A program made the translations under genes and the position numbers. The notes under the pieces are model-generated. The model did not search any database. It had not been told where the DNA came from and saw only the letters and a list, made by a program, of their open reading frames with translations. A stretch of DNA of 64,000 bases from positions 80,410-144,409 of the forward strand of contig JBOGVZ010000049.1 in assembly GCA_050692985.1 (NCBI GenBank). The letters run 5' to 3'. Shown here piece after piece: positions 3,552 through 48,752 of this stretch; position 1 is the first letter of the stretch; every line of letters begins with the position of its first letter. Source of the DNA: Actinomycetota bacterium (GTDB lineage Bacteria; Actinomycetota; UBA4738; CALAEC01).

Positions 3552-3568
3552 CCCGGACCGGGGCTCGG

Positions 3569-4219
3569 TCACGCTCGGCTCAGCACGATCGCGGTGAACC
3601 CGATGATGTTGAAGGCCGCGTGGCCGGCCATGCTGGCGGCCAGCGATCCCCGCCACTCGTAGAGGAGCGCCAGCAGCATCCCCACCACGAACATGGCGGG
3701 GACGAGCGCGCCCCCCTGGGGGGCGTGGACCGCGGCGAAGAACCCCGAGGAGACGATGGCCGCCCAGCCCAACCCGATCCGCTTCTTCAGCCCCCCGTAC
3801 AGGAACCCGCGGAAGAAGGTCTCCTCGCCGAAGGGCGCCGCCGCCACGACCAGGACGGCCGACAGCACGGTGTTCAGCAGATCGAACTCCACGGGAAGCT
3901 GATCGATCGGGCTGGGAGGGTGGCCGGTGATCGCCTGCCACAGGAGCTGGATGGCCGGGAACACCACGAACGCGATCACCCCGAAGATGGCCGCCCCGAC
4001 GAACGCGCCCAGCACCACGTCCCCGGTGGGCCGCCGGCTGCGCAGCCCCAGGGCCGGGACGGCTCCTCGGTGCCGGACCGCCACCCACACGACGCTGAAG
4101 CCTCCCAGGGCCAGCTCGAACGCCAGCCCCCCCAGCAGCAGGCCGGGCCCGCCGATCCCCACGGCCGCGGCGATGAGGACCGAGGCGATGGCCGTGGCCC
4201 CGAACGCCGCCAGGGCCAC
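3569..4219 (-). CDS. CPBP family intramembrane metalloprotease (CAAX protease-like)
   Basis: Multi-TM protein with [14 protein letters not shown] and AAVHA/HAAFN motifs. There is no in-frame ATG, so a GTG start near 4219 is assumed. The start is uncertain. Confidence 0.6.
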
Positions 4220-4269
4220 CGGGATCGCCTCCCACGGCTCCCACGGCGGGATCGGCCGCCCGGGCCGGC

Positions 4270-9080: not shown

Positions 9081-9375
9081 GGGGACGACCGGTCCCGCGG
9101 GCGAGGAAGGGGGAGCGGGGCCTGCCGCGCCCCCTCCTCGGGCGGGTCCCGACAGCCTTCGGTGACATTTCTCGGAAGAACCGGCCAATCCCGGAATCCG
9201 AACTTGACGCGGTTGTCCGGAACGGCCAAGATTCCCGGGCGAGGAAGGCAACCACTGGGCGATCCGGCCCGGTTGAGCGGAGGGAGGTGGTTGTCGAGGA
9301 CCAACGCCGTTGTCGGAGCTCTCCATGGGCTCCCTGCCCGTCGAATCCCTTTTCCTACACAGGAGGAACCGCTTG

Positions 9376-11316: not shown

Positions 11317-11336
11317 CGCTCGCAGGTAGCAGGACG

Positions 11337-11370
11337 GGAAGGGGCCCGGCCGCCAGGCCGGGCCCCTTCC
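11337..11370. terminator. GC-rich hairpin downstream of the LVIVD/RTX gene
   Basis: GGAAGGGGCCCGGC-cgccag-GCCGGGCCCCTTCC. This is a perfect 14-bp stem with a 6-nt loop and no U-tract. Confidence 0.5.
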
Positions 11371-11433
11371 GTTGCCCGGGTCTCCCCTGCAACTCGGACG
11401 AAACGGCCGGGACGCGGTAAGATTCTGAGGCCC

Positions 11434-12747: not shown

Positions 12748-12777
12748 TCGGAGCCCGTCGGAAGGGAGGATCGGCCT

Positions 12778-13197
12778 ATGGAGAAGGAATCGCGAGACGC
12801 GCAGGTGGCTCCGGAAGGGACCCGGCGTGTGTGGCGGCGTGTCCTGGCGATCGGGATCGCCCTGGTCCTGGTGGTGGCGATGTCCGCGGTGGCGCTGGCT
12901 GCCGTCCAGAAGGTGAAGGCGGTGGACGGCAACAAGTTCAAGCCCAAGCATGCGTACATCGAGCGGCTCGACAAGATCAAGTGGGTGAACAAGGACAACA
13001 TCACGCACAACGTGAAGTCCACGAACCTGAAGAAGAACTGGAAGTACGGTCCGAAGACCATCAAGCCCGGAGAGAGCGTCAGCCGGAAGTTCAAGAAGCT
13101 GGGGACGTACATCTACCGGTGCACGCTGCATTCCGCGATCGTGAGCGGCGTGTGCGAGGGGATGTGCGGGTTCGTCCACGTGCAGAAGAAGACCTAG
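12778..13197 (+). CDS. Membrane-anchored cupredoxin (plastocyanin/amicyanin-like blue copper protein)
   Basis: RBS gggagga. N-terminal TM anchor. IKWVNKDNITHNV (His ligand region) and GTYIYRCTLHSAIVSGVCEGMCGFVHV (Cys-x2-His...Met type-1 Cu loop). Lys-rich, lower-GC codon usage. Confidence 0.6.
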   Translation: MEKESRDAQVAPEGTRRVWRRVLAIGIALVLVVAMSAVALAAVQKVKAVDGNKFKPKHAYIERLDKIKWVNKDNITHNVKSTNLKKNWKYGPKTIKPGESVSRKFKKLGTYIYRCTLHSAIVSGVCEGMCGFVHVQKKT

Positions 13198-13221
13198 CGC
13201 CGCGCGCGCCACGCACGAGAG

Positions 13222-13250
13222 AAGGGGGCCGGCTGGACGCCGGCCCCCTT
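13222..13250. terminator. Bidirectional hairpin between convergent cupredoxin and LVIVD-2 genes
   Basis: AAGGGGGCCGGC-tggac-GCCGGCCCCCTT. Perfect 12-bp stem with a 5-nt loop. Confidence 0.55.
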
Positions 13251-13270
13251 CCTCGTGAACCGCCCCGGCC

Positions 13271-15280
13271 CTACGGGCCGGTGTACCTGAAGATGTACAG
13301 GCCGAAGTCCCGGTCGCTGGCCACGATCAGGCGACGGCCCTTGTCATCCTTTCCGGCAAGCTGGACGCCCCAGAAATCGTTCCCACCGATGTCGGCGAAG
13401 TGGCCGACCTCGTTGATCCCGATGTTCTTGCCGTACTTGGCCACCCGGAAGCCACCGTCGTAGTAGGCGAAGTACGCCAGCTTCCGGTTCCCCTTCATCG
13501 AGTCGGTGGCCACCTCGTGGACGGAGTAGGTCCCGCCCTGGATGGCCAGGTCCTCGTCGAGGCCTTCGGGGATGACGTACTGATCGAGCTCGGTGGACGT
13601 CCCGTTGAGCGGGTCGCTCTGGAACAGGTGGCTGTAGCCCCACCCGTCGAAGTGCGCGGTGAAGGCCACGTCGTCACCGACGTCACCGACGTCCGGCTCG
13701 ACGTCGCCGGGGTCACCGACCGGATAGGGCACCGTGTAGTCCGGGGGGTACCCGAACAGCAGGTGCATCTCCCGGTGCCCGATGCAGGTGCCCGGGATCT
13801 GCGGGTCGAAGATGTGCCCCTGGCTCCCGCAGATGAAGGCATCCGGGCTGGCTCCCGCGCCCGACCCGGAGTGGTGGTTGGCGACGATGGCGCCGCCGTA
13901 GCCCAGGAGCTGGGCCGTCTCCACCTTCTCGGAGAAGAAGCAGGCGTCCCCCGGGTTGTTCGGGTCAGAGACCGGTCCCCGCTGGGTCACCAGGATGAGC
14001 TCCTCGTCGGGCCCGGTGGCGATCCCGGTCTCCGCGGCCGTGGGGATGTTGTCCCTGTCGTTCGGGCAGGCATAGCCGCCGAACACCGTCGGACCGTTCA
14101 TCGAGTTGTCCGGCAGCGTGGCGATCGGCACCGTCCACCCGAACTCCCCGGCCGGATACTCGCCGGCGTTGGGTCCGCTCGTGATGAAGTGGTCCTGCCG
14201 GAACGGCGAGAAGTCCTCATCGTTGCCGATGAAGAGCTTCTTGGACCGGTTCCACTCCCCGTAGTGTGCGTTGCCCTCCGGAGGGCAGAACGCGGGGAAG
14301 AACGGCTCGCAGGCGGCGTAGTCGCTGTCGCCCAGGAACACCGGGTTGGCCGGGTCGCTGAGGTCCAGGTTGACCCACCCGCCGTCCCAGTACGACAGCA
14401 GCCCGACTGGCGTGCCGTCGACCTTCTTCGTGGTCAGGTCGTGCAGGAAGGCGTTCGTCCCGAAGGCGTCCACGTTCAGGCTCGGCCAGTCCGGTCGCCC
14501 CGTCTCCTGGATCAACACGGGGTTCGTCGGGTCGCTGAGGTCGAAGATGTCGACGTCGTACTGGCCCGACTCGTTGTTGTCCACCGCGATCGCGTAGACG
14601 TTGCCCCCGCCCTTCCAGGCGAACGCGCTGTGGTACTGGTGAGGGGCGGTGATGATCGCGCCGGGGTCCTGGAAGTGGCCGATCGTGGTGTCGCCCACAC
14701 CCTCGGACAGCTTCACCGCGTCCCGGGGATCCGTGATGTCCCAGATCGTCAGGCCCCCGATGCCGCCCGGGCCGCAGATCTCGTTGGAGATCAGCAGGAT
14801 GTCCCCGGTGAATGCGGCGGTGTTCATGTGGAAGGCCTGCATCCCCTCGGTGGCATAGGTGTTCGTGTGGCTCTTGAGGAACCCGCCGACCTTCCCGGGC
14901 TTCTCTGGGTTGTTCATGTCCACGACCCAGGAGCCGCCCGTGCACAGCTCGAACGGAAGGCCCGCCTGCCACCTGGCCAGATAGGCGAAGCCCTTGTGAT
15001 AGGCCACGTCCGCCACGCGGCTCTCGACCTTCGTGACCTGGAGCTTGCCAACGAGCTTCACGTTGGACTTGGTCCCCTCAGGGCGATTGGTCGCCTTGCC
15101 CTTCGGGGCGGCATGGTCACCCCTCTGTTCCGCCACCTCCTGCATGGTGGTCTGCCCGTCCCGGGCATTCTTGCTGCCCCCACCGTCGCCATCGTCGTCG
15201 GCCGACACTGGGCCGGAGACGAATAATCCGGTGGCCAGCGCAAGGCCGAGGACGAGCGCGAGGCTCCTGCGTCGCTGCAT
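13271..15280 (-). CDS. Secreted LVIVD-repeat beta-propeller protein (paralog 2)
   Basis: Signal MQRRRSLALVLGLALATGLFVSGPVSA followed by a DDDGDGGG acidic linker. Repeats GLTIWDITDPRDAV and YDVDIFDLSDPTNPVL. It sits immediately downstream of copCD on the same strand. Confidence 0.65.
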   Translation of the reverse strand: MQRRRSLALVLGLALATGLFVSGPVSADDDGDGGGSKNARDGQTTMQEVAEQRGDHAAPKGKATNRPEGTKSNVKLVGKLQVTKVESRVADVAYHKGFAYLARWQAGLPFELCTGGSWVVDMNNPEKPGKVGGFLKSHTNTYATEGMQAFHMNTAAFTGDILLISNEICGPGGIGGLTIWDITDPRDAVKLSEGVGDTTIGHFQDPGAIITAPHQYHSAFAWKGGGNVYAIAVDNNESGQYDVDIFDLSDPTNPVLIQETGRPDWPSLNVDAFGTNAFLHDLTTKKVDGTPVGLLSYWDGGWVNLDLSDPANPVFLGDSDYAACEPFFPAFCPPEGNAHYGEWNRSKKLFIGNDEDFSPFRQDHFITSGPNAGEYPAGEFGWTVPIATLPDNSMNGPTVFGGYACPNDRDNIPTAAETGIATGPDEELILVTQRGPVSDPNNPGDACFFSEKVETAQLLGYGGAIVANHHSGSGAGASPDAFICGSQGHIFDPQIPGTCIGHREMHLLFGYPPDYTVPYPVGDPGDVEPDVGDVGDDVAFTAHFDGWGYSHLFQSDPLNGTSTELDQYVIPEGLDEDLAIQGGTYSVHEVATDSMKGNRKLAYFAYYDGGFRVAKYGKNIGINEVGHFADIGGNDFWGVQLAGKDDKGRRLIVASDRDFGLYIFRYTGP

Positions 15281-15402: not shown

Positions 15403-17352
15403 TCAAGCACCCAACCCGGCCTCGAAGCACCCCGACAGGCCGGCCTCCGGGGCCACTCCGTCGAATCGCCAGCGGCCGGGTTCCAGCCTGGCGTTTGCGG
15501 AGAAGTGGCCTCGCGACAGGGGATCGGCCCGGAGCGTCATGGGATCGGTCCCCGGCTGCCACGCCGTGATCGTTGGGGTACCCGCCGCCACCTCCTCCCC
15601 CCCCTCGTCGAGGAACGTGAAGTGCACCTCGTAGCTGGGCCCCCCGAAATACAGGGTGTATCCCTCCACCGACCCTCCGGCCGGCGGCTCCGTCAGGTAG
15701 ATCGTCGGTTGGGCCGAATCCGGGGGCGGCTCGATCTCCTGGGCCCGGCACACCGTGGCCATCTGGAGGGGCACCTCCACGGCGGTGTCCCCCTCCTGGA
15801 CCAGGACCGCGACGTCCCACACCCCGCCCACGGCCAGGTTGCTGCCCACCCCCCGGTAGTCGCCCTCGTCCTCGGCCTGGAGGGCCAGCGTGGTGTCGCT
15901 CACTCCCCCGCCGGTGAACGAGAAGCGCACCTGCACGCGGTCGGCATCAACCGGCTCGCCGGAGTCGAAGTCGGTCACCTGGACCCGGAACCGGTTCGGG
16001 CCGGGGAGCGCGGGGTCGACCTCGAGCCGGGCACGCACCGAGGTGGCGAAGTCCGACCCTGCGACCGACACCGCGGCCGGCGGGACGGTCACCGGGGGGA
16101 CGGACTGCGGGGGAACCAGCGCGGCCAGGGTCCCCGCGGCGGCAAGCGTGACCGCGCCCAGGACGAGCTCCCCCCTGGAGACGCGGCGCAGCCCCCGCAG
16201 GGAGCGGCGGGCCGCCGGCACGTTCCGGTACCGATTGACGGCTCCCAGTCCGGCCAGCCCCAGCAGGAGCCCGGCCTTCACCAGGACGATCACCCCGTAC
16301 GAGGAGGAAACCAGCTCGCCCCAGGCACCGACCTCGTCCACGGCCCGGAGGACGCCGGTCGCGGCCACCGCGCCCAGGCCGAACGCCGCCACCGCCGAGA
16401 ACCGCCGGACGGCCCGGGCCTTGGCCTCGTCCGTGTCGCCCCGGACACCGACGAGCAGGGCGGCCAGGCCGCCGAGCCACACCCCGGCGGCGGTGAAGTG
16501 GGCCCACTGGAACCCGACGCTGGCCCACTCGAACCGCCCACCCGCGGCCGCATGGCCCGAGGCCACGTGGACCAGGATCCCGGCCGAGGCCACCACGCCG
16601 GCGGCCAACAGGGCGGGGCGCCGGGCCGCGGGGCGCCCCCACGTGGCCACGACCACCAGCACCCCGGCCACCCAGATGGCCGCCGCTCGCCACAGCAGGG
16701 CCCGGCCCACCGGGGTCCCAAGCAGGGCGCCCACCCCGGCGCCGGCCGCCCGCCCCTGGGCCACCGCCAGCCCCGCCAGCCCGAGCGCGGCCACCCCGGA
16801 GGCCCACAGGGCCACCCGCAGCGTCCGCCTGGGCGGCTCCCGGAACGCCAGGGCCCCGACCCACCCGGCTCCCACCACGAACCCCAGCCCGACGAACAGC
16901 GCCCACCGGCCGGCGATCTCCAGGAGGGATGGGGACTCCGAGGGCGGCTCGGGGGTCGGCGGGAGCGTCGCCTGGAGCGGCGACACGCCCACCCCAAAGG
17001 CGAACGCGCCCCCGGTGGGATGGCCGTCCACCCGGGACACCACCCGCCACGTCACGGTGTAGACCCCCTCCTCCAGCGGGCGGAGGCCCACCCGGAGCGC
17101 CAGCGGCTGGCCGGGCACGGGCTCCGCGGAGCCCTCCTGGACCTCGGCCCCTCCCTGGTCGAGCACCCGGACGTGTGACAGCGAGGGCTCCGGGGGCTCG
17201 GTCAGGGTGATCGTGACCTCCCGGGGACCCTCCTCGACCTGGGCGCCGTCGGCGGGATCGGACCCGCTCAGCAGGGCGTGGGCTCGGGCCGGGGTTGGGA
17301 GCGACAGCAGCGCCGCCGTGGCCACGGCGGCTGCCAGGAGGAGGCGTCGCAC
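15403..17352 (-). CDS. copCD: Fused CopC-CopD copper resistance/uptake protein (YcnJ-like)
   Basis: GTG start giving VRRLLLAAAVATAALLSLPTPARA-HALLSGSDPADGAQV. The CopC cupredoxin-like domain (TWRVVSRVDGHPTGGAFAFGV) is followed by a ~8-TM CopD domain and a C-terminal soluble domain. Confidence 0.8.
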   Translation of the reverse strand: MRRLLLAAAVATAALLSLPTPARAHALLSGSDPADGAQVEEGPREVTITLTEPPEPSLSHVRVLDQGGAEVQEGSAEPVPGQPLALRVGLRPLEEGVYTVTWRVVSRVDGHPTGGAFAFGVGVSPLQATLPPTPEPPSESPSLLEIAGRWALFVGLGFVVGAGWVGALAFREPPRRTLRVALWASGVAALGLAGLAVAQGRAAGAGVGALLGTPVGRALLWRAAAIWVAGVLVVVATWGRPAARRPALLAAGVVASAGILVHVASGHAAAGGRFEWASVGFQWAHFTAAGVWLGGLAALLVGVRGDTDEAKARAVRRFSAVAAFGLGAVAATGVLRAVDEVGAWGELVSSSYGVIVLVKAGLLLGLAGLGAVNRYRNVPAARRSLRGLRRVSRGELVLGAVTLAAAGTLAALVPPQSVPPVTVPPAAVSVAGSDFATSVRARLEVDPALPGPNRFRVQVTDFDSGEPVDADRVQVRFSFTGGGVSDTTLALQAEDEGDYRGVGSNLAVGGVWDVAVLVQEGDTAVEVPLQMATVCRAQEIEPPPDSAQPTIYLTEPPAGGSVEGYTLYFGGPSYEVHFTFLDEGGEEVAAGTPTITAWQPGTDPMTLRADPLSRGHFSANARLEPGRWRFDGVAPEAGLSGCFEAGLGA

Positions 17353-17368
17353 AGGGCCCTGCGGGTGG

Positions 17369-18001
17369 CTAGGAGGCACGGCGTCCGGCCAGGCCGGCCC
17401 CGGCCAGGACCACGGCCAGGGCGGCCAGGACGACGGCCACGATCGCCAGCACGGTAGAGGCGCCGGCACCGGATCCCAGGTCCTGCGCCTGGATGTCCTG
17501 CCGGAGCGCCTGGATGCGGGAGTCGATCCGATCCAGCCTGGTGGCCAGCTCCCCGGCGGTGGGGTCCCGGGCCGGGAACTGCGCGTCCGCGGGGTTCTGG
17601 ACGTCGTCGAACGTCTCGCCCGAGGTGAACTCCTCGTCGAAGTCCCGACCGGCCAGCGCGCCGGTGATGAGGAACGTGTAGGTCCCCGGGCGGGTCGGGA
17701 TCAGGAACGCGTGGTACTCGCCGGGGCTGCCGAACGCGGGAAGGAGGGGCAGCGGCTCGGTCGACTCCGTGCTGTCGGGGTCGCCGAACAGCACCTGGAC
17801 CTCCAGGTCGGCCCCCCGGACGGGCCGGTTGCCCCGGACCGCCGTGAGCTGGACCGCGTTGGCGAAGCCGGCGAAGGCGGGCTCTTCGAGCCAGCCGACC
17901 TCAACCTCCAACGGCCCGACCTGCCGTTCCTCGTGGGCCCGGGCCGGGGTGAGCGTCAGCAGCAGGACCCCGGACGCGGCAACGACGACACCCCTCCACA
18001 C
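17369..18001 (-). CDS. ycnI: YcnI-like (DUF1775) copper-binding protein with C-terminal TM anchor
   Basis: Signal MWRGVVVAASGVLLLTLTPARA, then the mature protein starts HEERQVG (N-terminal His). It ends in a C-terminal hydrophobic anchor. It lies directly upstream of copCD, matching the ycnI-ycnJ arrangement. Confidence 0.65.
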   Translation of the reverse strand: MWRGVVVAASGVLLLTLTPARAHEERQVGPLEVEVGWLEEPAFAGFANAVQLTAVRGNRPVRGADLEVQVLFGDPDSTESTEPLPLLPAFGSPGEYHAFLIPTRPGTYTFLITGALAGRDFDEEFTSGETFDDVQNPADAQFPARDPTAGELATRLDRIDSRIQALRQDIQAQDLGSGAGASTVLAIVAVVLAALAVVLAGAGLAGRRAS

Positions 18002-33369: not shown

Positions 33370-33393
33370 GGGCCGGTCCCGGAAGCCCGGCCC
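33370..33393. terminator. Hairpin between convergent aminotransferase and L,D-transpeptidase genes
   Basis: GGGCCGG-tcccggaagc-CCGGCCC overlapping the L,D-transpeptidase stop codon. Confidence 0.35.
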
Positions 33394-34595
33394 TAGGAGT
33401 GGTAGACGCGGACCTGGGTGCCGATGGGCATCAGGCCGTGGAGCCAGATCGCCGTCCAGTACGGGACCCGCGAGCAGCCGTGGCTGGCCGGGTAGCTCGG
33501 CACCGACGGCCAGCCGTGCACGGCCCTGTTCCCGTCGAAGTAGCTCGGGTAGTAGAGGTTGTTCGGGCTGTACCCCGCGATCTTCCGGTGCACCGAGAAC
33601 ACGCCGTCGTTCGTCGGCGTGCTGGCCTTCCCCGTCGAGGTGTGGACGATCTCGTCGATGTCCCCATTCTTGATGACGTACAGCACCTGCCGGGTCTGGT
33701 CGATCTCGATGTGGAACTTCGGCTTCGTGGACACGGACTTGGGCACGAACGGCTTCGTGAGCTTCTTCCAGGTAGCCGCCTTCACCGTCTCCACCCGGGC
33801 CATCCCCTGGACCTTGTGGAAGGCCATGACCGCGTCGCCGGTGCGGTAGTCGAACGACTTGTTCACGCCAGTCAGGCGGTGGTCGAGGTTCCGGAGCCGC
33901 CACTCCAGCGACTTGACGTAGGGCCCGTGGGCGCCCGTCGACAGGTTCGGCGGCAGGGGCGCGGTGCGCCGGGCGCTCTGCTTACTGGCCGCGGCGTGGT
34001 CCTCGTCGTTGAAGCGCAGCTTGGCCCGGTGCTTGCCGAGCTTCATGATCCGGAACTTCACCGAGAAGGTGCTCTTGCCGGAGAGCTTGGGATGCTTGCG
34101 GCCGACCACCTTGCCGGCCCGCCGCAGGGTCACGGTGACCTTCTCTCCGGGGTGGGCCGGCTCCACGCTCCCGGTCACCTTGGCCTTGTCGAACAGCCGC
34201 ACCTTCTTGAGCTTGACCTGGAGGACCGGCCGGACCTTCAGCAGGAGCGCGTCGCTGACGATCCCAAGGTCATCCAGCTGCGCCTGCACGGTGGTGTTGC
34301 GCTCGGGGGCCTGGTCCAGCTTCGTCTCGAAGTGGCCGGCGCCGTCGGCCGCCGTGGTGGCCAGCACGTCGGAGGGATCGTCGGCGTCCACGATCGTCAC
34401 GGTCGTGCCCTCGGGGGGAGGGGGCGTCACGTCGCCGAACAGGGTGGTGTTGTGCCCGTACGTGAGGATCGTGCTGGTGGCGTCCAGCGTCACGACCTCG
34501 CCGGCGGCCACGGCGGGAGCGGCGGCCCACAGCATCGCCACTCCCAGCAGCACGGCCAGCGGTGGCACGGATCGTGTGCGACGGTCCCCACCCAT
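33393..34595 (-). CDS. L,D-transpeptidase (YkuD domain) with N-terminal Ig-like domains
   Basis: Signal MGGDRRTRSVPPLAVLLGVAMLWAAAPAVAAGE. The C-terminal catalytic motif is HGWPSVPSYPASHGCSRV. Confidence 0.8.
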   Translation of the reverse strand: MGGDRRTRSVPPLAVLLGVAMLWAAAPAVAAGEVVTLDATSTILTYGHNTTLFGDVTPPPPEGTTVTIVDADDPSDVLATTAADGAGHFETKLDQAPERNTTVQAQLDDLGIVSDALLLKVRPVLQVKLKKVRLFDKAKVTGSVEPAHPGEKVTVTLRRAGKVVGRKHPKLSGKSTFSVKFRIMKLGKHRAKLRFNDEDHAAASKQSARRTAPLPPNLSTGAHGPYVKSLEWRLRNLDHRLTGVNKSFDYRTGDAVMAFHKVQGMARVETVKAATWKKLTKPFVPKSVSTKPKFHIEIDQTRQVLYVIKNGDIDEIVHTSTGKASTPTNDGVFSVHRKIAGYSPNNLYYPSYFDGNRAVHGWPSVPSYPASHGCSRVPYWTAIWLHGLMPIGTQVRVYHS

Positions 34596-40887: not shown

Positions 40888-41491
40888 CGGCTGCCGGGAC
40901 GGCGCCCTCGCGGAGGACCCGGGGTGGCGACCCGGTGAGGTCGACCACCGTGGAGGCCGTGTCCCCGGCCACCGAGGCATCCGCGCACAGGTAGACGGCC
41001 ACGGCCTCGCCCAGCGCCTCTCGGACGTCCCGGCACGTGGCGGGGGTCGGCTCACCGGAGCGGTTGGCGCTGGTGACCGCCAGCGGCCCGGTCCGCCGGA
41101 GGAGCCCCAGCGCGGTCTCGTGACCGGGAACCCGCACGCCCACCGTGTCCCGCTCGGCCCCCAGGTCCCACTCGCGGCTGGCCTCGGCACGGGGGAGGAC
41201 CAGCGTGACCGCGCCGGGCCAGAAGCGCTCGGCCAGGCCGCGGGCCCGCCGGTCGAAGACCGCCACCTCGGCGGCCTGGTCCATCCCGGCGGCCAGGACC
41301 GGCAGCGTCAGGCGCGGGGGGCGCTGCTTGGCCTCGAAGATCCGCGCGGTTGCGCCCGGCAGATCCGGCCGTCCGCCGACGCCGTACACCGTGTCGGTGG
41401 GGAACACCACCAGCCGTCCGTCCCCCACGGCCCGCTCGGCCGCGTCCAGGGCGGCCGTCGGATCTCGCCCGACGTCGAAGGCCTCACTCAC
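40868..41491 (-). CDS. tsaC: L-threonylcarbamoyladenylate synthase (TsaC/YrdC/Sua5 family)
   Basis: GTG start (GTGA overlap with the prmC stop). GRLVVFPTDTVYGVGG and SANRSGEP motifs. Confidence 0.8.
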   Translation of the reverse strand: MSEAFDVGRDPTAALDAAERAVGDGRLVVFPTDTVYGVGGRPDLPGATARIFEAKQRPPRLTLPVLAAGMDQAAEVAVFDRRARGLAERFWPGAVTLVLPRAEASREWDLGAERDTVGVRVPGHETALGLLRRTGPLAVTSANRSGEPTPATCRDVREALGEAVAVYLCADASVAGDTASTVVDLTGSPPRVLREGAVPAADVLAAL

Positions 41492-42330
41492 CGAGCCGCC
41501 CCCCGGGCCACGCGATCCCGCCCGGCGAGGTCCGGGAGCACCTCCACCTCGGTGAAGCGCTCCTCGAGGAGCCGGCGAGCCTCGCGGCCCTGCCGGTCGC
41601 CGATCTCCATCACCAGCCACCCCCCCGGCCGGAGCCACCCGGGCGACTCCTCGGCCAGGCGGCGGTGGATCTCGGTCCCTCCCACCAGGGCCTCGTACGG
41701 CTCGGCCCGGACCTCCGCCGGCAGGTCCTCGTACTCCTCCATCGTCACGTACGGCGGGTTGCTGACCACCAGGTCCACCCCACCCCGGAGCTCGTCCGGG
41801 ACCGGGGCGAACAGGTCGCCGCGGAGCACCTCGACCTTCAGCGCGTGCCGCGAGGCGTTGGCCCGGGCCACCGCCACGGCCTCGTCCGAGACGTCCGTGG
41901 CCACCACGCGGGCGTCCGGACGGCGGCGCTTCACGGCCAGGGCCACCGCACCGGTGCCCGTGCCCACATCGACCACGACGGGTTCCCGGCGCCCGTCCAC
42001 CGCCTCCAGGGCCCGCTCGACGACCACCTCCGTCTCCGGCCGGGGGACGAACACACCCGGGGCCACGCCCAGGACCAGGTCGAGGAACTGCTGCTCGCCG
42101 GTGAGGTACTGGAGCGGCACCCCGTGGCACCGCTGGCACAGGGCCCGGCCGAACAGCCGGGCGGTCCGCGTGTCGAGCCCCTCGGTGCGGGCGTACAGCC
42201 CGGCCCGGTCGGTGCCCAGGAAGTACATCAGCAGGGCTTCGGCCGTCTCCCGTGGCGACTCCACCCCGTGCCGCTCCAGGTACTCCGCCGCACGCGTGAC
42301 GACCTCGGCCGGCCTCATGACTGAGTTCAT
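41488..42330 (-). CDS. prmC: Release factor glutamine N5-methyltransferase
   Basis: VVDVGTGTGAVALA SAM motif and the NPPY catalytic motif (VVSNPPYV). Confidence 0.85.
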   Translation of the reverse strand: MNSVMRPAEVVTRAAEYLERHGVESPRETAEALLMYFLGTDRAGLYARTEGLDTRTARLFGRALCQRCHGVPLQYLTGEQQFLDLVLGVAPGVFVPRPETEVVVERALEAVDGRREPVVVDVGTGTGAVALAVKRRRPDARVVATDVSDEAVAVARANASRHALKVEVLRGDLFAPVPDELRGGVDLVVSNPPYVTMEEYEDLPAEVRAEPYEALVGGTEIHRRLAEESPGWLRPGGWLVMEIGDRQGREARRLLEERFTEVEVLPDLAGRDRVARGAAR

Positions 42331-42429
42331 TGTCGCTGACTCCGCGGGCGGGTGGCCTCCTCACTGGGAATCGAACCGATGTCGACGCCCCAGTAGATCG
42401 ACGGTCGGGCGATCCGGGGGTGGAGGAAC

Positions 42430-44088
42430 CTACGCGACCACCTTGAAGTAGGCCCACGGTGACCCGTCCTTCGCATGGTCCTCACCGTGGGAGAACCAGC
42501 CTCTGATGCGGAAGCTATAACCGCCAGCTGGATCGACGAGCTCGATGAATACCGAGCTCTTCTTCCCGAGCGTAGCCTTCAGCTTCCCGAGAGACTTCCA
42601 CTTGCCCGCGAAGCGCACCTCGAGTACCACGACGAGCTTGTTGCCCGCATGATTCGGGACGACCTTACCCTTATAGATCGGATCATCGCCTTCATCGTAC
42701 AGGTGGTATTTCGCTTGCTTTCCGTAGGCGCCGAGCAGCTTTCCCGTGGTAATTACCTTCACCCTCACGGTCCGCGAATTGCTCTCGGCGGGACGCCAAT
42801 CAGCCTCACCTGCCCACGTCGCTGTGTACTTGGTGTTCTTCGAGGGTGAAACCTTCACGGTGAGGTCACCGTCACCGTCAACGAGGCCCGAGGTGAGCAG
42901 GGTCTTCGTGCCATTGATCGGTTCCTTATAGATGGAGACCTTCTTGTTCGAGCTCTGGGCGAACGCATCGAGGTGTGCGGTCAGCTTGGCGGACTTCCCG
43001 AAGCCGATCGTGCCTTTCGACGTCGCGAGGGTCAGGGCGGTGATCTTGATCGCCGGTCCGTACAGCGAGTGGAAGTACGCATCTCCACCGTAGATGCTGG
43101 TCCCGGTCACGGCGAAGATTCGGGCTTCGTCCTCCGTGATCCCGACGCCCCTGGGGTAGAGGTAGGGCCCGGGAGTGCCATCGAAGTCCACCGATTCCGA
43201 TGGTGTGGGATCGCCGGCCGGAAACACATGCACGTCGGGCTCATAGATCCCATGAACCCCCCCCACCACGTGACTCGGCCCGACGGCGAGCGCATCCGGG
43301 TAGGGCGGCAGCGGATACGTGAACCCGGTGGGTTTGAGGTCGGACGCAGACAGCTGTCGGATCTCGTAGGGGGCGCTTGCCGTCACCAGGAGGCCCTGAC
43401 CGTCCGGCATCACGGCTACGTCCTGGATGTTGGTCATGTCGGAGGCCCAATTCTTGGCGACGAGCGCGGGCGGGTCGACGCTGATGTCGTAGCGGGAAAT
43501 GGAGCTGCCCGCCATGAACAGCGCGTCAGGGATGACCGGGCTCGAGGCGAACAGGCCGCATCCGAAGTCCCCTGTGTGCATCGTGACCACCTCGGTGGAG
43601 AGATCGACGGACGCCACTTGGGAACCGAAGGACCCACATGAATGCGCGAACCATAGGCGGCCGCCCCCGACCCCAAGCGTTCCCCAAGCCGTGACATCGA
43701 GTTCGATCGAACCGGTCTTCTCCAGCGTCACGGCGTCCACCTTGTAGATCTGATCGCGACCTTCGGCCACCGCATACAGCGTCTGGTCGATCAGGACCAT
43801 CCCCGCAGCACGGGGCACGTCCCCGACGGTGGCGGCGAGGGTCGCGTCGAAGTCCATGACGAGGATCTCCGAGGACCCAAGGCCGCCCGAGACGAACACG
43901 TGCCCGCCTTCCTCGTCGATCACGAGGTCGTAGAAATTCGCAAGGGGCAACTTCACGCCCACATCAGCGGATGCCTGAGCGGATGGCGTGACCTGTCCGA
44001 CCAGCGCTGTCAGTGTGGCGATCAACGCGACGGTGCCGATTGAGGCGCGAAGCGCCGAGGCTCCGGAATTGCTGGCCCGCAACATCAC
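42430..44088 (-). CDS. Secreted beta-propeller-like protein with Lys-rich C-terminal module, in a low-GC insert
   Basis: Signal MMLRASNSGASALRASIGTVALIATLTALVGQVTPSAQASA. YVTN/YncE-like repeats (HVFVSGG, LYAVAEGRDQIYKVD). Lys-rich C-terminus (KWKSLGKLKATLGKK...GYSFRIRGWFSHGEDHAKDGSPWAYFKVV). Codon usage is visibly more AT-rich than the flanking prmC/prfA. Confidence 0.6.
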   Translation of the reverse strand: MMLRASNSGASALRASIGTVALIATLTALVGQVTPSAQASADVGVKLPLANFYDLVIDEEGGHVFVSGGLGSSEILVMDFDATLAATVGDVPRAAGMVLIDQTLYAVAEGRDQIYKVDAVTLEKTGSIELDVTAWGTLGVGGGRLWFAHSCGSFGSQVASVDLSTEVVTMHTGDFGCGLFASSPVIPDALFMAGSSISRYDISVDPPALVAKNWASDMTNIQDVAVMPDGQGLLVTASAPYEIRQLSASDLKPTGFTYPLPPYPDALAVGPSHVVGGVHGIYEPDVHVFPAGDPTPSESVDFDGTPGPYLYPRGVGITEDEARIFAVTGTSIYGGDAYFHSLYGPAIKITALTLATSKGTIGFGKSAKLTAHLDAFAQSSNKKVSIYKEPINGTKTLLTSGLVDGDGDLTVKVSPSKNTKYTATWAGEADWRPAESNSRTVRVKVITTGKLLGAYGKQAKYHLYDEGDDPIYKGKVVPNHAGNKLVVVLEVRFAGKWKSLGKLKATLGKKSSVFIELVDPAGGYSFRIRGWFSHGEDHAKDGSPWAYFKVVA

Positions 44089-44147
44089 CGGATTGTCTGG
44101 GGCGGGAGAGATGCGGTCAATACAGGGAAGTGCGTATCTGAGAACGA

Positions 44148-45218
44148 TCAGGTAGAGGTAGCGCCGAGCTGGGCGGCGCGCTCGCGGGCGGTGAGGGCGT
44201 CGACGAACTCGTCCAGCTCCCCCTCCAGGATCTGGGTCAGGCGGTGGGAGGTGATCGGGATCCGGTGGTCGGTCACCCGGCTCTGGGGGAAGTTGTAGGT
44301 GCGGATCTTCTCGGCGCGGTCGCCGGTGCCCACCTGGGCCCGGCGGGCCTGGGCCTCCTCGCGCTGCTGGCGATCCTGCTCCAGCTTGAGCAGCCGGGCC
44401 CGCAGGTAGCGAAGCGCCTTCTCCTTGTTCTGCCGCTGGGACCGCTCCTCCTGGACGGCGATCACGATGCCGGTCGGCTTGTGGGTGAGCCGCACCGCGG
44501 AGTCGGTGGTGTTCACCGACTGGCCGCCGGGGCCGGAGGACCGGTACACGTCCGTCTCGATGTCCTCCTCCCGGACCTCGACCTCCACCTCATCGGCCTC
44601 GGGCAACACCGCCACGGTGGCCGTCGAGGTGTGGATGCGCCCGCCGGACTCGGTCTCGGGGATCCGCTGGACCCGGTGGACCCCGGACTCGTGCTTCAGC
44701 CTCGAGTAGGCCCGATCCCCGCGAACCTCCAGGACGATGTCCTTGAAGCCTCCCAGGTCCGACGGGCTCGAGGACAGGACCTCGGTCTTCCACCGGTGCC
44801 GCTCGGCGTACCGCCGGTACATCTCGAACAGGTCCGAGGCGAACAGCGCCGCCTCCTGCCCCCCGGCTCCGGCCCGGATCTCCAGCACGACGTTCTTGTC
44901 GTCGTAGGGATCCCTGGGCAGCAGCAGCACCTCCAGCCTGGCCTCCAGGTCCCGGGCTTCCGCGGCGGCCCGGTCGGCCTCCTGCCGGAAGTACGCCTGG
45001 GACTCGGGGTCCTTCTCCTCGTGCGCCAGCGCGCGCGCCTCCTCCGCGTCGGCAGTGGCCTTCTTGAGCTGCCGGTAAGCGGTGACGACCTCCTCGAGCT
45101 CCCGGTGGCGCTTGCCCAGGTCCCGGAGGCGGGCAGGGTCGGCCGCGACCTCGGGGCTCGACAGCTCCCGGGTCAGCTCCTCGAAGGACGCTTCGATCTC
45201 GTCCAGGCGCTCGCGCAT
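44148..45218 (-). CDS. prfA: Peptide chain release factor 1
   Basis: GGQ motif ([17 protein letters not shown]) and a PxT-type region, which assigns RF1. Confidence 0.95.
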
Positions 45219-45269
45219 GACGGCTCCATTATCCGCGCTGCGGGGAGCCTCGCCCCGGCCTCCGGCGCC

Positions 45270-46187
45270 CTACTCGGGGAGTGGCGGGGCGGGGGACTCG
45301 GCGGGGGCACCGGCGGCGGCCTCGCCCTCCATGGCGCGCACCTGCTCGAAGGCGGCGATGGCCACCTCGATCTGCTCCCGAGCGGGAGGCTTCGTGGTGA
45401 CCTTCTGGAGCCACAGTCCCGGGGCCATCAGGGCCCGCATGACCCGGGAGCCCGAGTGCCGGGCCCCCAGCCGCAGCAGCTCGAAGGCCAGCCCGGCGAT
45501 CAGCGGGATGGCGATGAGCCGCGAGCCGATCCGCCACGGCAGGGAGGGGTTGCCGAACAGGGCGAACACGAAGATCGTCAGGATCATCACGATCAGCAGG
45601 AAGTTCGTGCCGCACCGCACGTGGAGCGTGGAGTAGCGGTCCACGCTCTCCGGCTCCAGCGGGGCCCGGCGCTCGTACGCGGCGATCGTCTTGTGCTCGG
45701 CGCCGTGGTACTCGAACACCCGGCGGATCTCCTTCATCCGCCCGATCAACAGCAGGTACCCCAGGAACAGCGCCACCCGGAAGATCCCCTCGGCCACGTT
45801 GAGCAGGAGCCCCGAGCCCACCCGGTCCCGGGCCAGGCTCGACACGAAGGCGGGGAACACCACGAACAGGCCGACGAACAGGGCCAGGGCCACGGTCATC
45901 GACAGGGCCATCTGGCGGGGGGTGAGCTTCTCCTCCTCCTGGGCCGACTGGTTGGCCGAGATCGTGAGGGCCTTCACCCCGATGGCCAGGGCCTGCCCCA
46001 GGGCGATCACCCCGCGGAGGGGGGGCATCCGAAGGATGCGGTACCGCTTGGCGATCGAGTCGATCTCCCGCCCCTCGAGGTGGATCTCGCCGTCCGGCTT
46101 CCGGACCGCGATCGCCCAGTCGTCGCGGCCCCGCATCATCACGCCCTCGAGGACCGCCTGCCCCCCGTAGTAGTGCTCCTCGGCCAC
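45270..46187 (-). CDS. DUF1385-family membrane protein (YqhQ-like)
   Basis: GTG start. HYYGGQAVLEGVMMRG and HGAEHKTIAAYE motifs. This gene is a common prfA neighbour. Confidence 0.7.
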   Translation of the reverse strand: MAEEHYYGGQAVLEGVMMRGRDDWAIAVRKPDGEIHLEGREIDSIAKRYRILRMPPLRGVIALGQALAIGVKALTISANQSAQEEEKLTPRQMALSMTVALALFVGLFVVFPAFVSSLARDRVGSGLLLNVAEGIFRVALFLGYLLLIGRMKEIRRVFEYHGAEHKTIAAYERRAPLEPESVDRYSTLHVRCGTNFLLIVMILTIFVFALFGNPSLPWRIGSRLIAIPLIAGLAFELLRLGARHSGSRVMRALMAPGLWLQKVTTKPPAREQIEVAIAAFEQVRAMEGEAAAGAPAESPAPPLPE

Positions 46188-46799: not shown

Positions 46800-48752
46800 T
46801 CACCCTTCGATCTCCTCCCTGAAGTACGCGTCGACCGGGGTTCCCTCCGGCGTCGAGCCCTCCACCCGGAACGTCCACCGGCCCGCCCCGAGGTCCTCCT
46901 GGGCCACGAAGTGCCCCGGGGAGAGCACAACCGGGTCCAGCAGGAGCGGTGCCCCGGTTTCGGGAGCGGCCTCGAAACGGGCGACCTCTACCGGCTGCTC
47001 GGCCCCTTCTGGGGTGAGGAAGGTGAGGTGGACCTCGTTGGGGCCTTCCTTCCCCGGATCGACGAATCCCTGGATCGAGATCCCGTTCGGCAGCGCGATC
47101 GTGTAGATGGTGGGCTGGCCCTCCGCCTCGGAGACCGTGATGTCCTGGGGTGGGAGGCGGGTGCGGAGCCCGAGGTCGATCGTCCGGGAGTCCCCGCCCA
47201 GGAGGACCAACGCGTCGACCTCCCAGGAGCCGTCGACCGAGAGGTTGGGCCCCTCGGCTCGCCACGCTGCCTGCCCGACGCTCTCCAGGTCCAGCTCCGA
47301 GGGCGCGATGTCCGGCCGAGAGGGGAGGGAGAACGACAGACGAACGCCAGTCGCGTCCACGGGCTCTCCCTCGCCGTCCGTGACCCTCACGTCGAATCGA
47401 TTGACCCCCGCCGTGCCGGGGGTGGCGGTCAGCCGGACATGGAGCAATCCCGCGGGATCCGACCCCTCGGCCACCACGCGGGCGGGAGCAACCGGAGGGG
47501 GGGCCTGGGCCGGCGGGGGGAGACCGGCCATCAGGCCGGTGAGCCCGAAGACTCCCGCCCCGATGGCCAGCTCGGCGCCCACCGTGCGGCGGAGGGTCCC
47601 GAACAGCCGGCCGCGCGAGGAGATGCGGGGGACGATCCGGTACCGGTTGTAGGCGCCCAGGGCCAGCAGACCCAGGAACAGGGCGCTCTTGCCCACCACG
47701 GTCAGGCCGAAGCCCGTGTCGATCAGGCGATCCGGCTCCAGGCCCACCTGGTTCAGCGCGCGGAGGACCCCCGTCACGGCCACCACGGGGAGGGCCACCG
47801 TGGCCAGCGCGGAGAACCGGCGGACGGCACCGGAGCGTTCCTCGTCCGGCTCCCCCCTGATCCCCACCAGGAGCCACAGCAGCCCTCCCACCCAGGCCGC
47901 CACGCTGAGGATGTGGACCCACTGCACCCCGACGTGCAGGGGCGCGTTCTCCACGGCGCTGGCATGGCCGGCGAAGGCGTGGACCAGCATGGCGAGGGCG
48001 GCCGCCGCGGCGAGGATCGCGGCGATCCACCGGCGGGGCCGGAGCGCCGAGGCCGCGGTCGCCGGCAGGGCCAGCAGGACGACGGCGCCGCGCGCCACGA
48101 GGAGCCGGCCCCGCTCGGATCCCAGCAGCTCGGCCGCGGGGACGTCCACGGCGGCACGCTCGGCCAGGAACATGCCGAGGACGCCGAGGGCGGCCGCGGC
48201 CCAGGCGAGCCACAGCAACCCCGGCACCGGACTCCGTGCCCGGAAGACAAGGAGGCGCCCCAGGGCCCCGCCGAACAGCAACGCGAGCCCCCAGTAGAAG
48301 GCCCACCGGGATCCGACGGCCAGGGGGGTGGGACGCTCCTGGGTCGGGTAGGACCCCTTGGGCTCGGCGACAGGCTCCACCGCCTGGCCCACCCCGAAGG
48401 CGAACGACCCCGTGGTGACGTGACCGTCGGCCGTGGAGAGGACCCGCCAGCTCACCGTGTACGTGCCCCGGGACAACTCCGGCAGCGACACCCTGAGCCC
48501 GCGTGGCTGGCCGGCGACGCCCTCGAGGGGGCCGACCTCCACGGGGGCTCCGGTGGAGTCGAACACCCGGATCTGCGACAGCCCGTGATCGGGCGGCTCG
48601 GTGAACGTGATCACGATCTCCGGCGGGGCGGTGTCGAGCACATCGCCGTTGGCCGGGGAGGAGCTCTGCAGGAGCGCGTGGGCGTGGGCGGCCGGGCCGG
48701 TCATCACCAGCCCGGCCGCCGCCAGCCCGAGAACGACGAGCGCCCGCCGCAC
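46800..48752 (-). CDS. copCD: Fused CopC-CopD protein, second copy
   Basis: MRRALVVLGLAAAGLVMTGPAAHA-HALLQSSSPANGDVL. CopC domain (YTVSWRVLSTADGHVTTGSFAFGV), then CopD TM helices, then a C-terminal soluble domain. Same architecture as 15403-17352. Confidence 0.8.
   Translation of the reverse strand: MRRALVVLGLAAAGLVMTGPAAHAHALLQSSSPANGDVLDTAPPEIVITFTEPPDHGLSQIRVFDSTGAPVEVGPLEGVAGQPRGLRVSLPELSRGTYTVSWRVLSTADGHVTTGSFAFGVGQAVEPVAEPKGSYPTQERPTPLAVGSRWAFYWGLALLFGGALGRLLVFRARSPVPGLLWLAWAAAALGVLGMFLAERAAVDVPAAELLGSERGRLLVARGAVVLLALPATAASALRPRRWIAAILAAAAALAMLVHAFAGHASAVENAPLHVGVQWVHILSVAAWVGGLLWLLVGIRGEPDEERSGAVRRFSALATVALPVVAVTGVLRALNQVGLEPDRLIDTGFGLTVVGKSALFLGLLALGAYNRYRIVPRISSRGRLFGTLRRTVGAELAIGAGVFGLTGLMAGLPPPAQAPPPVAPARVVAEGSDPAGLLHVRLTATPGTAGVNRFDVRVTDGEGEPVDATGVRLSFSLPSRPDIAPSELDLESVGQAAWRAEGPNLSVDGSWEVDALVLLGGDSRTIDLGLRTRLPPQDITVSEAEGQPTIYTIALPNGISIQGFVDPGKEGPNEVHLTFLTPEGAEQPVEVARFEAAPETGAPLLLDPVVLSPGHFVAQEDLGAGRWTFRVEGSTPEGTPVDAYFREEIEG

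Follow-up and report, generated by a model that had tools for sequence, protein, structure and literature searches.

The closest described counterpart of the protein studied here, by fold and by family profile alike, is a surface-layer protein fragment from Methanosarcina mazei (PDB 1L0Q), an exported protein with tandem YVTN beta-propeller and PKD domains, in which a seven-bladed propeller is likewise followed directly by an Ig-like domain. However, it is archaeal, shares 14% identity with our target and carries PKD where the target has two Big_3_5-like domains; an S-layer role for the target cannot be claimed from this likeness. E. coli YncE (PDB 3VGZ) and leptospiral Lp49 (PDB 3BWS) are also secreted seven-bladed propellers with no known catalysis, at about 10–14% identity to the target. 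YncE lacks an Ig stalk, while Lp49 (Foldseek E-value to the target 6e-9) does combine an Ig-like domain with a propeller, but with the Ig domain at the N-terminus. Pfam family Big_3_5 (PF16640, bacterial Ig-like domain, group 3) comprises stalk domains found in adhesin-like and surface proteins. Both target Ig domains are of this type, although the first falls below the family gathering score and the second is linked to it only through the profile of the first (hhalign probability 94%, E 1.3e-7, 80 columns). In actinobacterial L,D-transpeptidases, Ig-like domains lie N-terminal to the YkuD domain, as in M. tuberculosis LdtMt2.

The window (the whole 64,000-nucleotide stretch of Actinomycetota DNA that was analysed) was originally predicted to hold a 1.66-kb gene for a secreted propeller between prfA and prmC, on the same strand as both, and the corresponding ORF was found exactly there. 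The features of the locus are as follows.

44148–45218, minus strand: prfA, peptide chain release factor 1, the upstream flank (PCRF and RF-1 domains)
44092–44120, minus strand: predicted sigma-70-like promoter, TTGACC-17 nt-GACAAT, ending 4–6 nt upstream of the start codons (consensus match and conservation)
42430–44088, minus strand: target gene for the propeller plus two-Ig protein (ORF call, 552 aa; GTG start at 44088, with an ATG one codon downstream at 44085 that is the NCBI choice)
43972–44088, minus strand: predicted Sec signal peptide, residues 1–39, ending TPSAQA before SADV (read by eye from the sequence)
43057–43968, minus strand: seven-bladed YVTN/YncE-type beta-propeller, residues 41–344 (AF2 strands, Foldseek, family profile against PDB)
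42754–43056, minus strand: first Ig-like domain, Big_3_5-like, residues 345–445, net charge +7 (Pfam PF16640, AF2 beta-sandwich)
42433–42753, minus strand: second Ig-like domain, Lys-rich, residues 446–552, net charge +7 (the C-terminal 'module' of the original prediction; hhalign to the first Ig domain)
41488–42330, minus strand: prmC, release-factor glutamine methyltransferase, the downstream flank (PrmC_N and MTS domains), separated from the target by a 99-bp spacer

The encoded protein is 100% identical to a database entry (NCBI/Logan protein) named 'MAG: hypothetical protein ACRDI0_06575 [Actinomycetota bacterium]'. A word-indexed homologue search returned only the target itself; its family emerged from an exhaustive HMMER scan, which recovered at least 1,497 cluster representatives at E ≤ 1e-3. 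The architecture is constant within the family, many matches being 530–560 aa long and alignable end to end. All members with a source name come from Actinomycetota MAGs, and every name seen was 'hypothetical protein'. An NCBIfam search of the target, YVTN repeat models included, gave no family at E ≤ 1. The literature on YVTN and Big_3_5 provided general adhesin and S-layer context, with nothing on the target family or on insertions between prfA and prmC.

The AF2 model of the target (pLDDT 92, pTM 0.84) has 28 strands within residues 45–343, corresponding to seven four-stranded blades. The top Foldseek match is 1l0q_A (E 6e-15), the S-layer protein with YVTN propeller and PKD domains, and alignments to seven-bladed propellers gave target-normalised TM-scores of 0.53–0.75. 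When a profile of 70 family members was compared with PDB sequences, 1l0q_A was matched with an E-value of 1.7e-20, hydrazine synthase beta (5c2v_B) with 4.2e-16 and YncE (3vgz_A) with 5.1e-13. Pfam returned no propeller family for the full-length target at E ≤ 1, and only weak matches to DUF7144 and Glu_cyclase_2 for the excised propeller. The N-terminal propeller that had been anticipated is supported by model, fold search and family profile, and secretion by a predicted signal peptide with a positive n-region, the hydrophobic IGTVALIATLTALVG and an AQA motif (residues 6–34 have pLDDT <50).

The two Ig domains are consecutive, all-beta and modelled with pLDDT 91–98. Big_3_5 matches the target over 85 of the 88 profile positions with an E-value of 3.9e-5 and 24.6 bits, rising to 27.9 bits for the excised two-Ig module, against a gathering score of 35.5; the family relatives P0009 (115 bits) and P0013 (45 bits) score above it. 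The isolated second domain matched no Pfam family, and its invariant residues P478, W497 and R527 are family-specific. This second Ig-like domain is a diverged duplicate of the first. Of 70 family members, 97% have a C-terminal domain with a net positive charge (mean +8.9, target +7), while the propeller carries a net charge of −26 (family mean −18). No lipobox Cys, LPXTG or L[PA]xT[GAS] motif was found; the only Cys residues are 151 and 177, and the chain ends (WAYFKVVA) inside a folded domain. The target lacks both the sorting signal with C-terminal transmembrane segment of a sortase substrate and the lipobox Cys of a lipoprotein. Taken with the AF2 model, these features demonstrate the architecture of a predicted Sec-exported, non-anchored surface or extracellular protein, with an acidic propeller head on a basic two-Ig stalk.

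The target differs from its surroundings in composition, as had been proposed. Its GC content is 0.626 compared to 0.71–0.75 in prfA and prmC, and its GC3 is 0.80 compared to 0.947–0.955 in the same flanks and 0.90–0.955 in neighbouring genes overall. Across 46 genes of the window GC3 averages 0.908 (sd 0.056), making the target atypical for its host. It was found that GC3 is low in each domain (0.76–0.82; C-terminal domain 0.76). Lys codons were therefore rejected as the cause of the low GC, since the third positions are themselves depleted throughout.

To place the gene in context, the prfA–prmC junction was compared across relatives whose prfA is 63–87% identical to the window copy. The two genes are normally adjacent, as originally stated, with a spacer of ≤150 bp in 68 of 78 related loci. 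Outgroups keep the pair contiguous, as do half of the close relatives; of 14 close relatives, 7 have an empty slot, and so do nearly all outgroups. The comparison shows that the ancestral state is one in which prfA and prmC abut or overlap. Among about 17 close relatives five occupancy states were observed: empty (7), a small lipoprotein (6), a subtilase (1), an FG-GAP propeller on a two-Ig stalk (1, locus L009) and orthologues of the target (2). The slot is hence shown to be a lineage-specific site of gene turnover, where sister lineages hold other genes for exported proteins.

The two orthologues, P0002 at locus L083 and P0004 at L084, occupy the same slot and are 39–40% identical to the target, whereas the flanking prfA (80%) and prmC (77–86%) are far better conserved. 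Their GC3 is 0.79–0.81 compared to 0.88–0.955 in their flanks, and the cassette orthologues all lie about 0.12–0.15 below their own flanks. In contrast, the slot lipoproteins, for which NCBIfam gave nothing, have native GC3 (0.86–0.91). The original view of an insertion with foreign composition is answered in two parts: relatives do carry the gene at this position, which counts against it, but with reduced rather than native GC3. One of the three closest target homologues, P0003, is located elsewhere, between a GlnR-like regulator and glnA. In a neighbour-joining tree of prfA, a single short protein and poorly resolved, the window, L009 and L083 cluster; the prmC tree lacks that grouping. In a further neighbour-joining tree of 128 sequences, likewise poorly resolved, a clade of 5 unites the C-terminal modules of the target, L084 and L009. 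The window contains no tRNA, no meaningful Rfam element lies around the target, direct and inverted repeats there are short and at chance level, and the called neighbouring genes are housekeeping genes without integrase- or transposase-type Pfam families.

The putative promoter is the sole promoter-like site in 41400–45400, where 0.2 would be expected. L009, L083 and L084 show the arrangement TTGAC[CG]-17-nACAnT ahead of their slot genes as well. The motif TATTGAC[CG] is found a single time in the window; in 882 kb of loci there are 10 copies, 4 of them at this position upstream of a slot gene. No terminator-like site was detected in 41400–45400, including the 99-bp spacer between target and prmC. 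The target would be transcribed from its own predicted promoter, with read-through keeping prmC expressed, and given the short distance to the predicted start codons a leaderless mRNA is possible. The subclade that includes this genome is shown by these comparisons to hold a propeller-plus-two-Ig cassette together with its own predicted sigma-70-type promoter in the slot. The low-GC3 orthologues of ~40% identity, along with the conserved promoter motif, argue that the target is a long-standing occupant of the slot and not a fresh foreign insertion.

We consider it likely that the gene encodes an exported propeller-on-two-Ig protein long resident in a turnover slot, and that its resemblance to a Calx-beta protein elsewhere in the window (see below) is compositional. 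The low GC3 would then reflect an equilibrium that is stable and specific to this gene, a fast-evolving and probably weakly expressed accessory one, and not a trace of recent transfer. A value of 0.80 looks like an equilibrium because synonymous sites should be saturated at ~40% protein identity.

The same slot could alternatively be a recombination hotspot, in which whole exoprotein cassettes are exchanged again and again for others from a common pool of lower GC, with the ~40%-identical genes representing different imported alleles. The number of occupancy states, which includes a swap between FG-GAP and YVTN heads on related stalks, the low GC3 of every propeller-plus-two-Ig occupant and the presence of the close homologue P0003 at a different locus all agree with such a model. 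Nevertheless, the lipoprotein occupants have native GC3, the prfA tree unites the propeller-plus-two-Ig carriers as a single acquisition predicts, and the promoter is conserved together with the cassette, with no mobility machinery seen. On balance, we regard repeated import as unlikely. Somewhat less probable still is a dedicated exoprotein cassette slot at the prfA–prmC junction, where heads (YVTN, FG-GAP) would be exchanged on a conserved, basic, promoter-bearing two-Ig stalk and GC3 kept below that of the genome by diversifying selection or recurrent exchange, much like a variable surface receptor or antigen.

With respect to function, the architecture and charge distribution of the long-standing slot occupant suggest that the propeller may act as a ligand-binding head rather than as an enzyme, while the basic Ig tandem could serve as a spacer and provide a non-covalent hold on the negatively charged cell envelope. 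The propeller could instead be an enzyme or cofactor-binding module of the lactonase, glutaminyl-cyclase or hydrazine-synthase-beta-like type. Hydrazine synthase beta is found among both profile and fold matches, there are weak matches to Glu_cyclase_2 and SGL, and the propeller columns D58, F65, Y105, W146 and Y258 are nearly invariant. However, the best matches are non-enzymatic (the 1l0q S-layer protein, YncE, Lp49 and BamB), the Pfam matches to enzyme families are far below threshold (E 0.18, and 2e-4 in a 1222-aa relative), and we identified no conserved grouping of His, Asp or Cys. A catalytic propeller is therefore improbable.

A recent horizontal insertion, i.e. a genomic islet unique to this genome with a low GC3 reflecting incomplete amelioration, is highly improbable. 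It would account for a GC3 of 0.80 against 0.95 in the flanks, for the empty slot in many relatives and for the self-only result of the word-indexed search. Against it stand the ~40%-identical orthologues in the same slot of two other organisms, which have an equal GC3 deficit and a conserved promoter motif upstream, and the appearance of equilibrium in GC3 at such divergence. Furthermore, the target is accompanied by no tRNA, no flanking repeat and no integrase/transposase-type Pfam among its neighbours.

The two-Ig stalk itself is not restricted to this propeller. It is found behind the FG-GAP propeller of L009, behind PPC and galactose-binding-like domains (P0041 and P0044) and standing alone (P0090 and P0142). 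Within the window a single other gene carries a related module, ahead of a YkuD catalytic domain:

33984–34493, minus strand: tandem Ig region of the YkuD L,D-transpeptidase gene at 33393–34595 (two-Ig HMM, BLASTP, Pfam)

The HMM of the two-Ig module matches this tandem over HMM positions 8–196 (E 1.1e-11), and BLASTP aligns the target and the YkuD protein at 27% identity over 146 aa (E 8e-4). Pfam assigns YkuD, Big_3_5 and Big_6 to the gene. The YkuD protein resembles the target in having a related Ig tandem within a protein acting in the cell wall; it differs in the N-terminal rather than C-terminal placement of the tandem, in its catalytic partner and in its native GC3 of 0.958. The K/(K+R) ratio in the window is 0.45–0.67 for secreted proteins, compared to 0.04–0.36 otherwise, with all soluble secreted proteins favouring Lys over Arg. 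Lys-richness is a general bias of the secreted proteins of this organism.

This bias bears on the original prediction that the target shares a C-terminal module with a second protein 30 kb away:

11434–12747, plus strand: Calx-beta protein (Calx-beta Pfam, E 1.5e-12), with a C-terminal domain from about residue 286 to 437

Like the target, this protein is secreted, its N-terminal domains (beta-sandwiches) are acidic, and its C-terminal domain is basic, rich in Lys and all-beta. Lys makes up 13.6% (target) and 17.3% (Calx-beta) of the C-terminal 110 aa, compared to 3.6% and 2.4% elsewhere in the respective proteins. Both peptides that had been quoted exist; their proposed ungapped alignment contains 6 identities in 56 positions and scores slightly above shuffled sequences (p 0.037).

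No homology between the two C-termini was recovered by statistical comparison. Smith-Waterman alignment with 2,000 shuffles remained within the shuffled range (p 0.21–0.79), BLASTP gave no C-terminus-to-C-terminus alignment, and hmmsearch --max with an HMM of the target C-terminal domain (113 homologues) found nothing in the Calx-beta protein at E ≤ 100. In hhalign the two profiles reached a probability of 0.12% (E 0.46, 4 columns; overall range 0.1–0.7%), and an HMM of the Calx-beta C-terminal domain searched against six-frame ORFs of the window matched its own gene and not the target ORF. The distant Ig tandem of the YkuD protein is recovered by the same methods and provides a positive control for these nulls. 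The module claimed for both proteins hence did not survive alignment.

Nor do the two genes share a foreign composition: the GC3 of the Calx-beta gene is native (0.945; 0.973 in the C-terminal part), compared to 0.76 in the target C-terminal domain, and its low GC is ascribed to Lys codons (GC3 0.95–0.97). The domains also differ in build, with 107 aa and 9 strands in the target compared to ~150 aa, 11 strands, a helix and two invariant Cys in the Calx-beta protein. In the latter, the signature FHHPKH...C.WW...C...DGAGN...GRNKN includes both Cys, and 13 full-length homologues retain their own C-terminal domain. These homologues were found with the full-length query; the C-terminal 155 aa by themselves gave no match in a word-indexed search, and Pfam gave only a chance-level match for that domain. 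Foldseek with the whole Calx-beta model is uninformative on the C-terminal domain because Calx-beta/CBD12 matches dominate. Unlike the Ig pair of the target, the Calx-beta C-terminal domain thus has its own two-Cys signature and native codons, with no relationship between the two detectable by sequence or profile. We conclude that the likeness is one of composition, judging from these comparisons. The idea of a shuffled C-terminal module holds for the two-Ig stalk on other heads and in the YkuD protein, but not for the Calx-beta partner.

A mobile, foreign-composition, Lys-rich module common to both proteins can accordingly be dismissed as most improbable, for although the C-terminal ~110 aa of either protein are rich in Lys, basic in net charge and all-beta, and follow acidic N-terminal domains, and the ungapped score slightly exceeds shuffles, BLASTP, Smith-Waterman, HMM and hhalign comparisons are all null where the YkuD control is detected, Calx-beta GC3 is native, and domain lengths and secondary-structure elements differ.

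The target is largely ordinary in itself, being one more uncharacterised secreted propeller-plus-Ig-stalk protein of an uncultured actinobacterium. Its setting shows that a core, normally overlapping prfA–prmC pair tolerates, and in one lineage repeatedly hosts, genes for exported proteins, which lets the slot serve as a convenient natural marker for gene turnover and calls for care in annotation by synteny. Low GC3 alone is no evidence of recent transfer, since a deficit of ~0.13 persists across orthologues only 40% identical. Similarly, the Lys-over-Arg bias of secreted proteins in this organism can imitate a shared module to the eye. Should the dedicated cassette slot prove true, the junction would represent a surface-variation locus concealed within a core translation operon.

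The target gene is a single ORF lying between prfA and prmC in the order DUF1385, prfA, target, prmC, sua5, metallophosphatase, LMW phosphatase, rpiB, glyA and a family 4 glycosyltransferase (Pfam Glycos_transf_4), with the three central genes placed as follows.

44148-45218, minus strand: prfA, flank of the target
42430-44088, minus strand: target ORF, 552 aa, GTG start with an ATG one codon downstream
41488-42330, minus strand: prmC, flank of the target

The Pfam families of the neighbouring genes are housekeeping ones, and no terminator, tRNA, Rfam element or meaningful repeat was found in the flanking surroundings. NCBI lists a protein of 100% identity to the product under the name 'MAG: hypothetical protein ACRDI0_06575 [Actinomycetota bacterium]', encoded on a 128-kb contig of assembly GCA_975305695.1. 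The GC content of the gene is 0.626, compared to 0.711 for prfA and 0.749 for prmC, while GC3 is 0.80 compared to 0.955 and 0.947, respectively (window mean 0.908, sd 0.056, n=46 genes). Every domain of the target is GC3-poor (0.75-0.82). The coordinates, the prfA-prmC position and the low GC of the original prediction are thus borne out by the ORF call and by both composition measures. Two paralogous membrane proteins of ~650-690 aa with similar exported N-terminal regions (...HALL.S.P..G...) are encoded at 15403-17469 and 46800-48752, both on the minus strand; by appearance they may be CopC/CopD-type copper-resistance fusions, and one of them lies two genes upstream of prfA, past the DUF1385 gene.

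An AlphaFold2 model of the target (70-sequence alignment; pLDDT 92, pTM 0.84) shows disorder in the N-terminal signal region (residues 6-34), then 28 beta-strands forming seven four-stranded blades (45-343) and two beta-sandwich domains (345-445 and 446-552). The best PDB match is 1l0q_A (E 6e-15), followed by other seven-bladed propellers including Lp49, hydrazine synthase beta and BamB. The family sequence profile agrees with the fold (1l0q E 1.7e-20, hydrazine synthase beta 4e-16, YncE 5e-13), and membership of the YVTN-type propeller class is hence supported by fold and profile, with no curated Pfam or NCBIfam model making that assignment. The first sandwich matches the bacterial Ig-like domain Big_3_5 at E 3.9e-5, which is under the gathering score (24.6 versus 35.5 bits), a score that relatives exceed. 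The second, Lys-rich sandwich has no Pfam match; by hhalign it is a divergent duplicate of its predecessor (probability 94%, E 1.3e-7, 80 columns). The sequence contains neither a lipobox nor an LPXTG motif, and the chain terminates within a folded domain. An exhaustive HMMER scan returned 1,497 cluster representatives at E<=1e-3 and 161 at E<=1e-30, many of them 530-560 aa long and aligned end to end at 26-41% identity; the target therefore belongs to a large family of constant architecture. All source names seen in the family are 'hypothetical protein', and the named members come from Actinomycetota MAGs. Throughout the family the last domain keeps a basic charge (mean +8.9, net positive in 97% of members). 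The target is a secreted-type propeller-plus-two-Ig protein of this family.

The closest known systems include the YncE and Lp49-type secreted propellers and the Big_3_5 domains that form stalks in adhesin-like proteins, the target sequence itself being sub-threshold for Big_3_5. Also among them is the YVTN propeller-PKD tandem fragment of a Methanosarcina surface-layer protein (1L0Q), which has the same head-plus-Ig logic, but shares only 14% identity with the target and uses a different Ig family. A further close system is the Ig-YkuD architecture seen in actinobacterial L,D-transpeptidases such as LdtMt2, and the window's own YkuD gene was tested in this respect.

11434-12747, plus strand: Calx-beta protein, 437 aa (Pfam Calx-beta, E 1.5e-12)
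33393-34595, minus strand: YkuD L,D-transpeptidase, with a tandem Ig region at about 33984-34493 related to the target stalk

The original prediction held that the target shares a Lys-rich C-terminal module of foreign composition with the Calx-beta protein. Both quoted peptides do occur in the two proteins. However, BLASTP leaves the C-termini unaligned, the ungapped register first proposed contains 6/56 identities, and Smith-Waterman scores for the terminal 57-140 residues fall within the distribution of 2,000 shuffles (p 0.21-0.79). An HMM of the target C-terminal domain (113 homologues), run against the Calx-beta protein with a one-sequence search space and all filters off, gave no match even at E<=100. 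As a positive control, the target-module HMM does find a distant relative in the window, the YkuD tandem Ig region, at E 1.1e-11. In the reciprocal direction, the Calx C-terminal HMM matched only its own gene among all six-frame window ORFs, and profile-profile comparison of the two C-terminal domains yielded a probability of 0.12% (E 0.46, 4 aligned columns). The Calx-beta protein has its own family, with 13 full-length homologues at 32-46% identity and a conserved C-terminal domain (FHHPKH..ARTIHVF..EPSGI..C.WW..C..W..PS.GTK..Y.VYSRA.DGAGN.E..GRNKN.FE) in which two Cys are invariant. The shared module is thus refuted, and the two C-termini are without relationship. Nor is the Calx-beta gene foreign in composition: GC3 reaches 0.945 for the gene as a whole and 0.973 for its C-terminal part, the lower total GC being due to amino-acid content.

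The likeness that was picked up lies in composition: each protein pairs an acidic N-terminal part (net -26 in the target, -24 in the Calx-beta protein) with a C-terminal part that is basic and rich in Lys. The soluble secreted proteins examined in the window all favour Lys over Arg, with K/(K+R) of 0.45-0.67, compared to 0.04-0.36 in the other genes examined, which are cytoplasmic and membrane genes of a 72% GC genome. The strongly Lys-shifted genes are at 9310-11316 (plus), 11434-12747 (plus), 13271-15280 (minus), 33393-34595 (minus) and 42430-44088 (minus). The target and Calx C-terminal domains carry Lys where their families mostly have Arg; for the target family, the domain has 10.9% Arg versus 3.7% Lys in most relatives. 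Three clustered secreted-protein genes at 9310-15280 encode an LVIVD-like propeller carrying RTX repeats, the Calx-beta protein and a second LVIVD-like protein, this one with a PA domain. They have lowered total GC (0.64-0.67) with native GC3 (0.93-0.95), and adjoin a subtilase-like ORF ending at 9080.

Modularity of the stalk, i.e. the tandem Ig domains, does hold with other partners. The YkuD Ig region aligns to the target by BLASTP (E 8e-4, 27% identity), and this gene, of native GC3 (0.958), is the true second carrier of the module in the window. The two-Ig stalk is also found behind PPC and galactose-binding-like domains, and alone, and other family members occur at loci unrelated to the prfA-prmC interval.

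This interval (the slot) was surveyed by a prmC scan using one genome per species, giving 80 loci, 78 with both prfA and prmC. Of these 78, 68 have a corrected spacer of <=150 bp. Seven close relatives (prmC 66-80% identical) have an empty slot, with prfA and prmC abutting or overlapping (spacers -5 to +12 bp); other close relatives carry the occupants listed.

L006, 5175-5813: lipoprotein
L008, 424-1077: lipoprotein
L010, 812-1429: lipoprotein
L011, 5357-5986: lipoprotein
L012, about 1800-2427: lipoprotein
L013, 1764-2387: lipoprotein
L015, 3687-4904, minus (opposite) strand: S8 subtilase, a 405-aa subtilisin-like secreted protease, in one relative
L009, 4164-5951, plus strand: 595-aa protein with a seven-repeat FG-GAP propeller (Pfam E 3.7e-35), then a two-Ig stalk

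The ~205-217-aa lipoprotein has no Pfam or NCBIfam match, and its genes have native GC3 without deficit. Conserved across the six MAGs, it has a signal peptide with a Cys and the motifs EELWPSDCC and LYLWR.GRLVL. The spacer is occasionally filled in more distant Gaiellales-like genomes too: L076 carries a ~1,000-aa ORF (2448-5483), whose translation resembles an acyl-AMP ligase with carrier domain, followed by a ~208-aa ORF, and L055 a 216-aa ORF (5314-5964).

L009 has the prfA most similar to that of the window (87%), and its stalk is 43-45% identical to the target's; the FG-GAP in place of a YVTN-type propeller suggests that the head was swapped while the stalk was kept. Two of the target's three closest homologues, P0002 (locus L083) and P0004 (L084), occupy the same slot. 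In these loci identity to the window is 80% for prfA and 77-86% for prmC, but just 39-40% for the slot proteins. The GC3 deficit recurs, with 0.79-0.81 for the P0002 and P0004 genes compared to 0.88-0.955 for neighbours, and 0.82 in L009 compared to 0.92-0.97. In a prfA neighbour-joining tree, the window clusters with L009 and L083, the lipoprotein carriers cluster, and the outgroups are slot-empty; the prmC tree is less resolved. A stalk-module tree (n=128) places the target, L084 and L009 within one five-sequence clade.

The 59-bp spacer after prfA contains the sole promoter-like site in 41400-45400, TTGACC-17-GACAAT, ending 4-6 nt ahead of the target start codons. In L009, L083 and L084 the slot gene is preceded by the same arrangement. 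The extended, -35-like motif TATTGAC[CG] has a single copy in the whole window and 10 copies in 882 kb of retrieved loci, 4/10 at the slot-gene upstream position, with equivalent placement as follows.

Window, 44115-44122, minus strand: TATTGAC[CG]
L009, 4128: TATTGAC[CG]
L084, 149: TATTGAC[CG]

The -10 is no more than about 6 nt from the start codon in the window and in L009, and these slot-gene mRNAs may accordingly be leaderless. The target would have its own transcript, possibly leaderless, with read-through into prmC.

The slot is a lineage-specific, variable interruption of an ancestrally contiguous prfA-prmC pair, and several related genomes share its propeller-plus-two-Ig cassette, which is highly diverged, retains its promoter and has a GC3 deficit that persists. 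The slot may have a history of vertical descent with fast divergence or one of repeated cassette replacement, the L009 head swap implying at least one recombination event on the stalk. As synonymous sites should be saturated at 40% protein identity, the low GC3 would be an equilibrium value particular to this fast-evolving accessory gene, not a mark of recent transfer. The propeller may act as a binding head, since the propellers closest to it are non-enzymatic ones of the cell surface or periplasm, with the basic Ig tandem as a possible spacer and non-covalent tether to the anionic envelope. Only two aspects are mildly unusual: the variability of the prfA-prmC slot and the persistence of the GC3 deficit.
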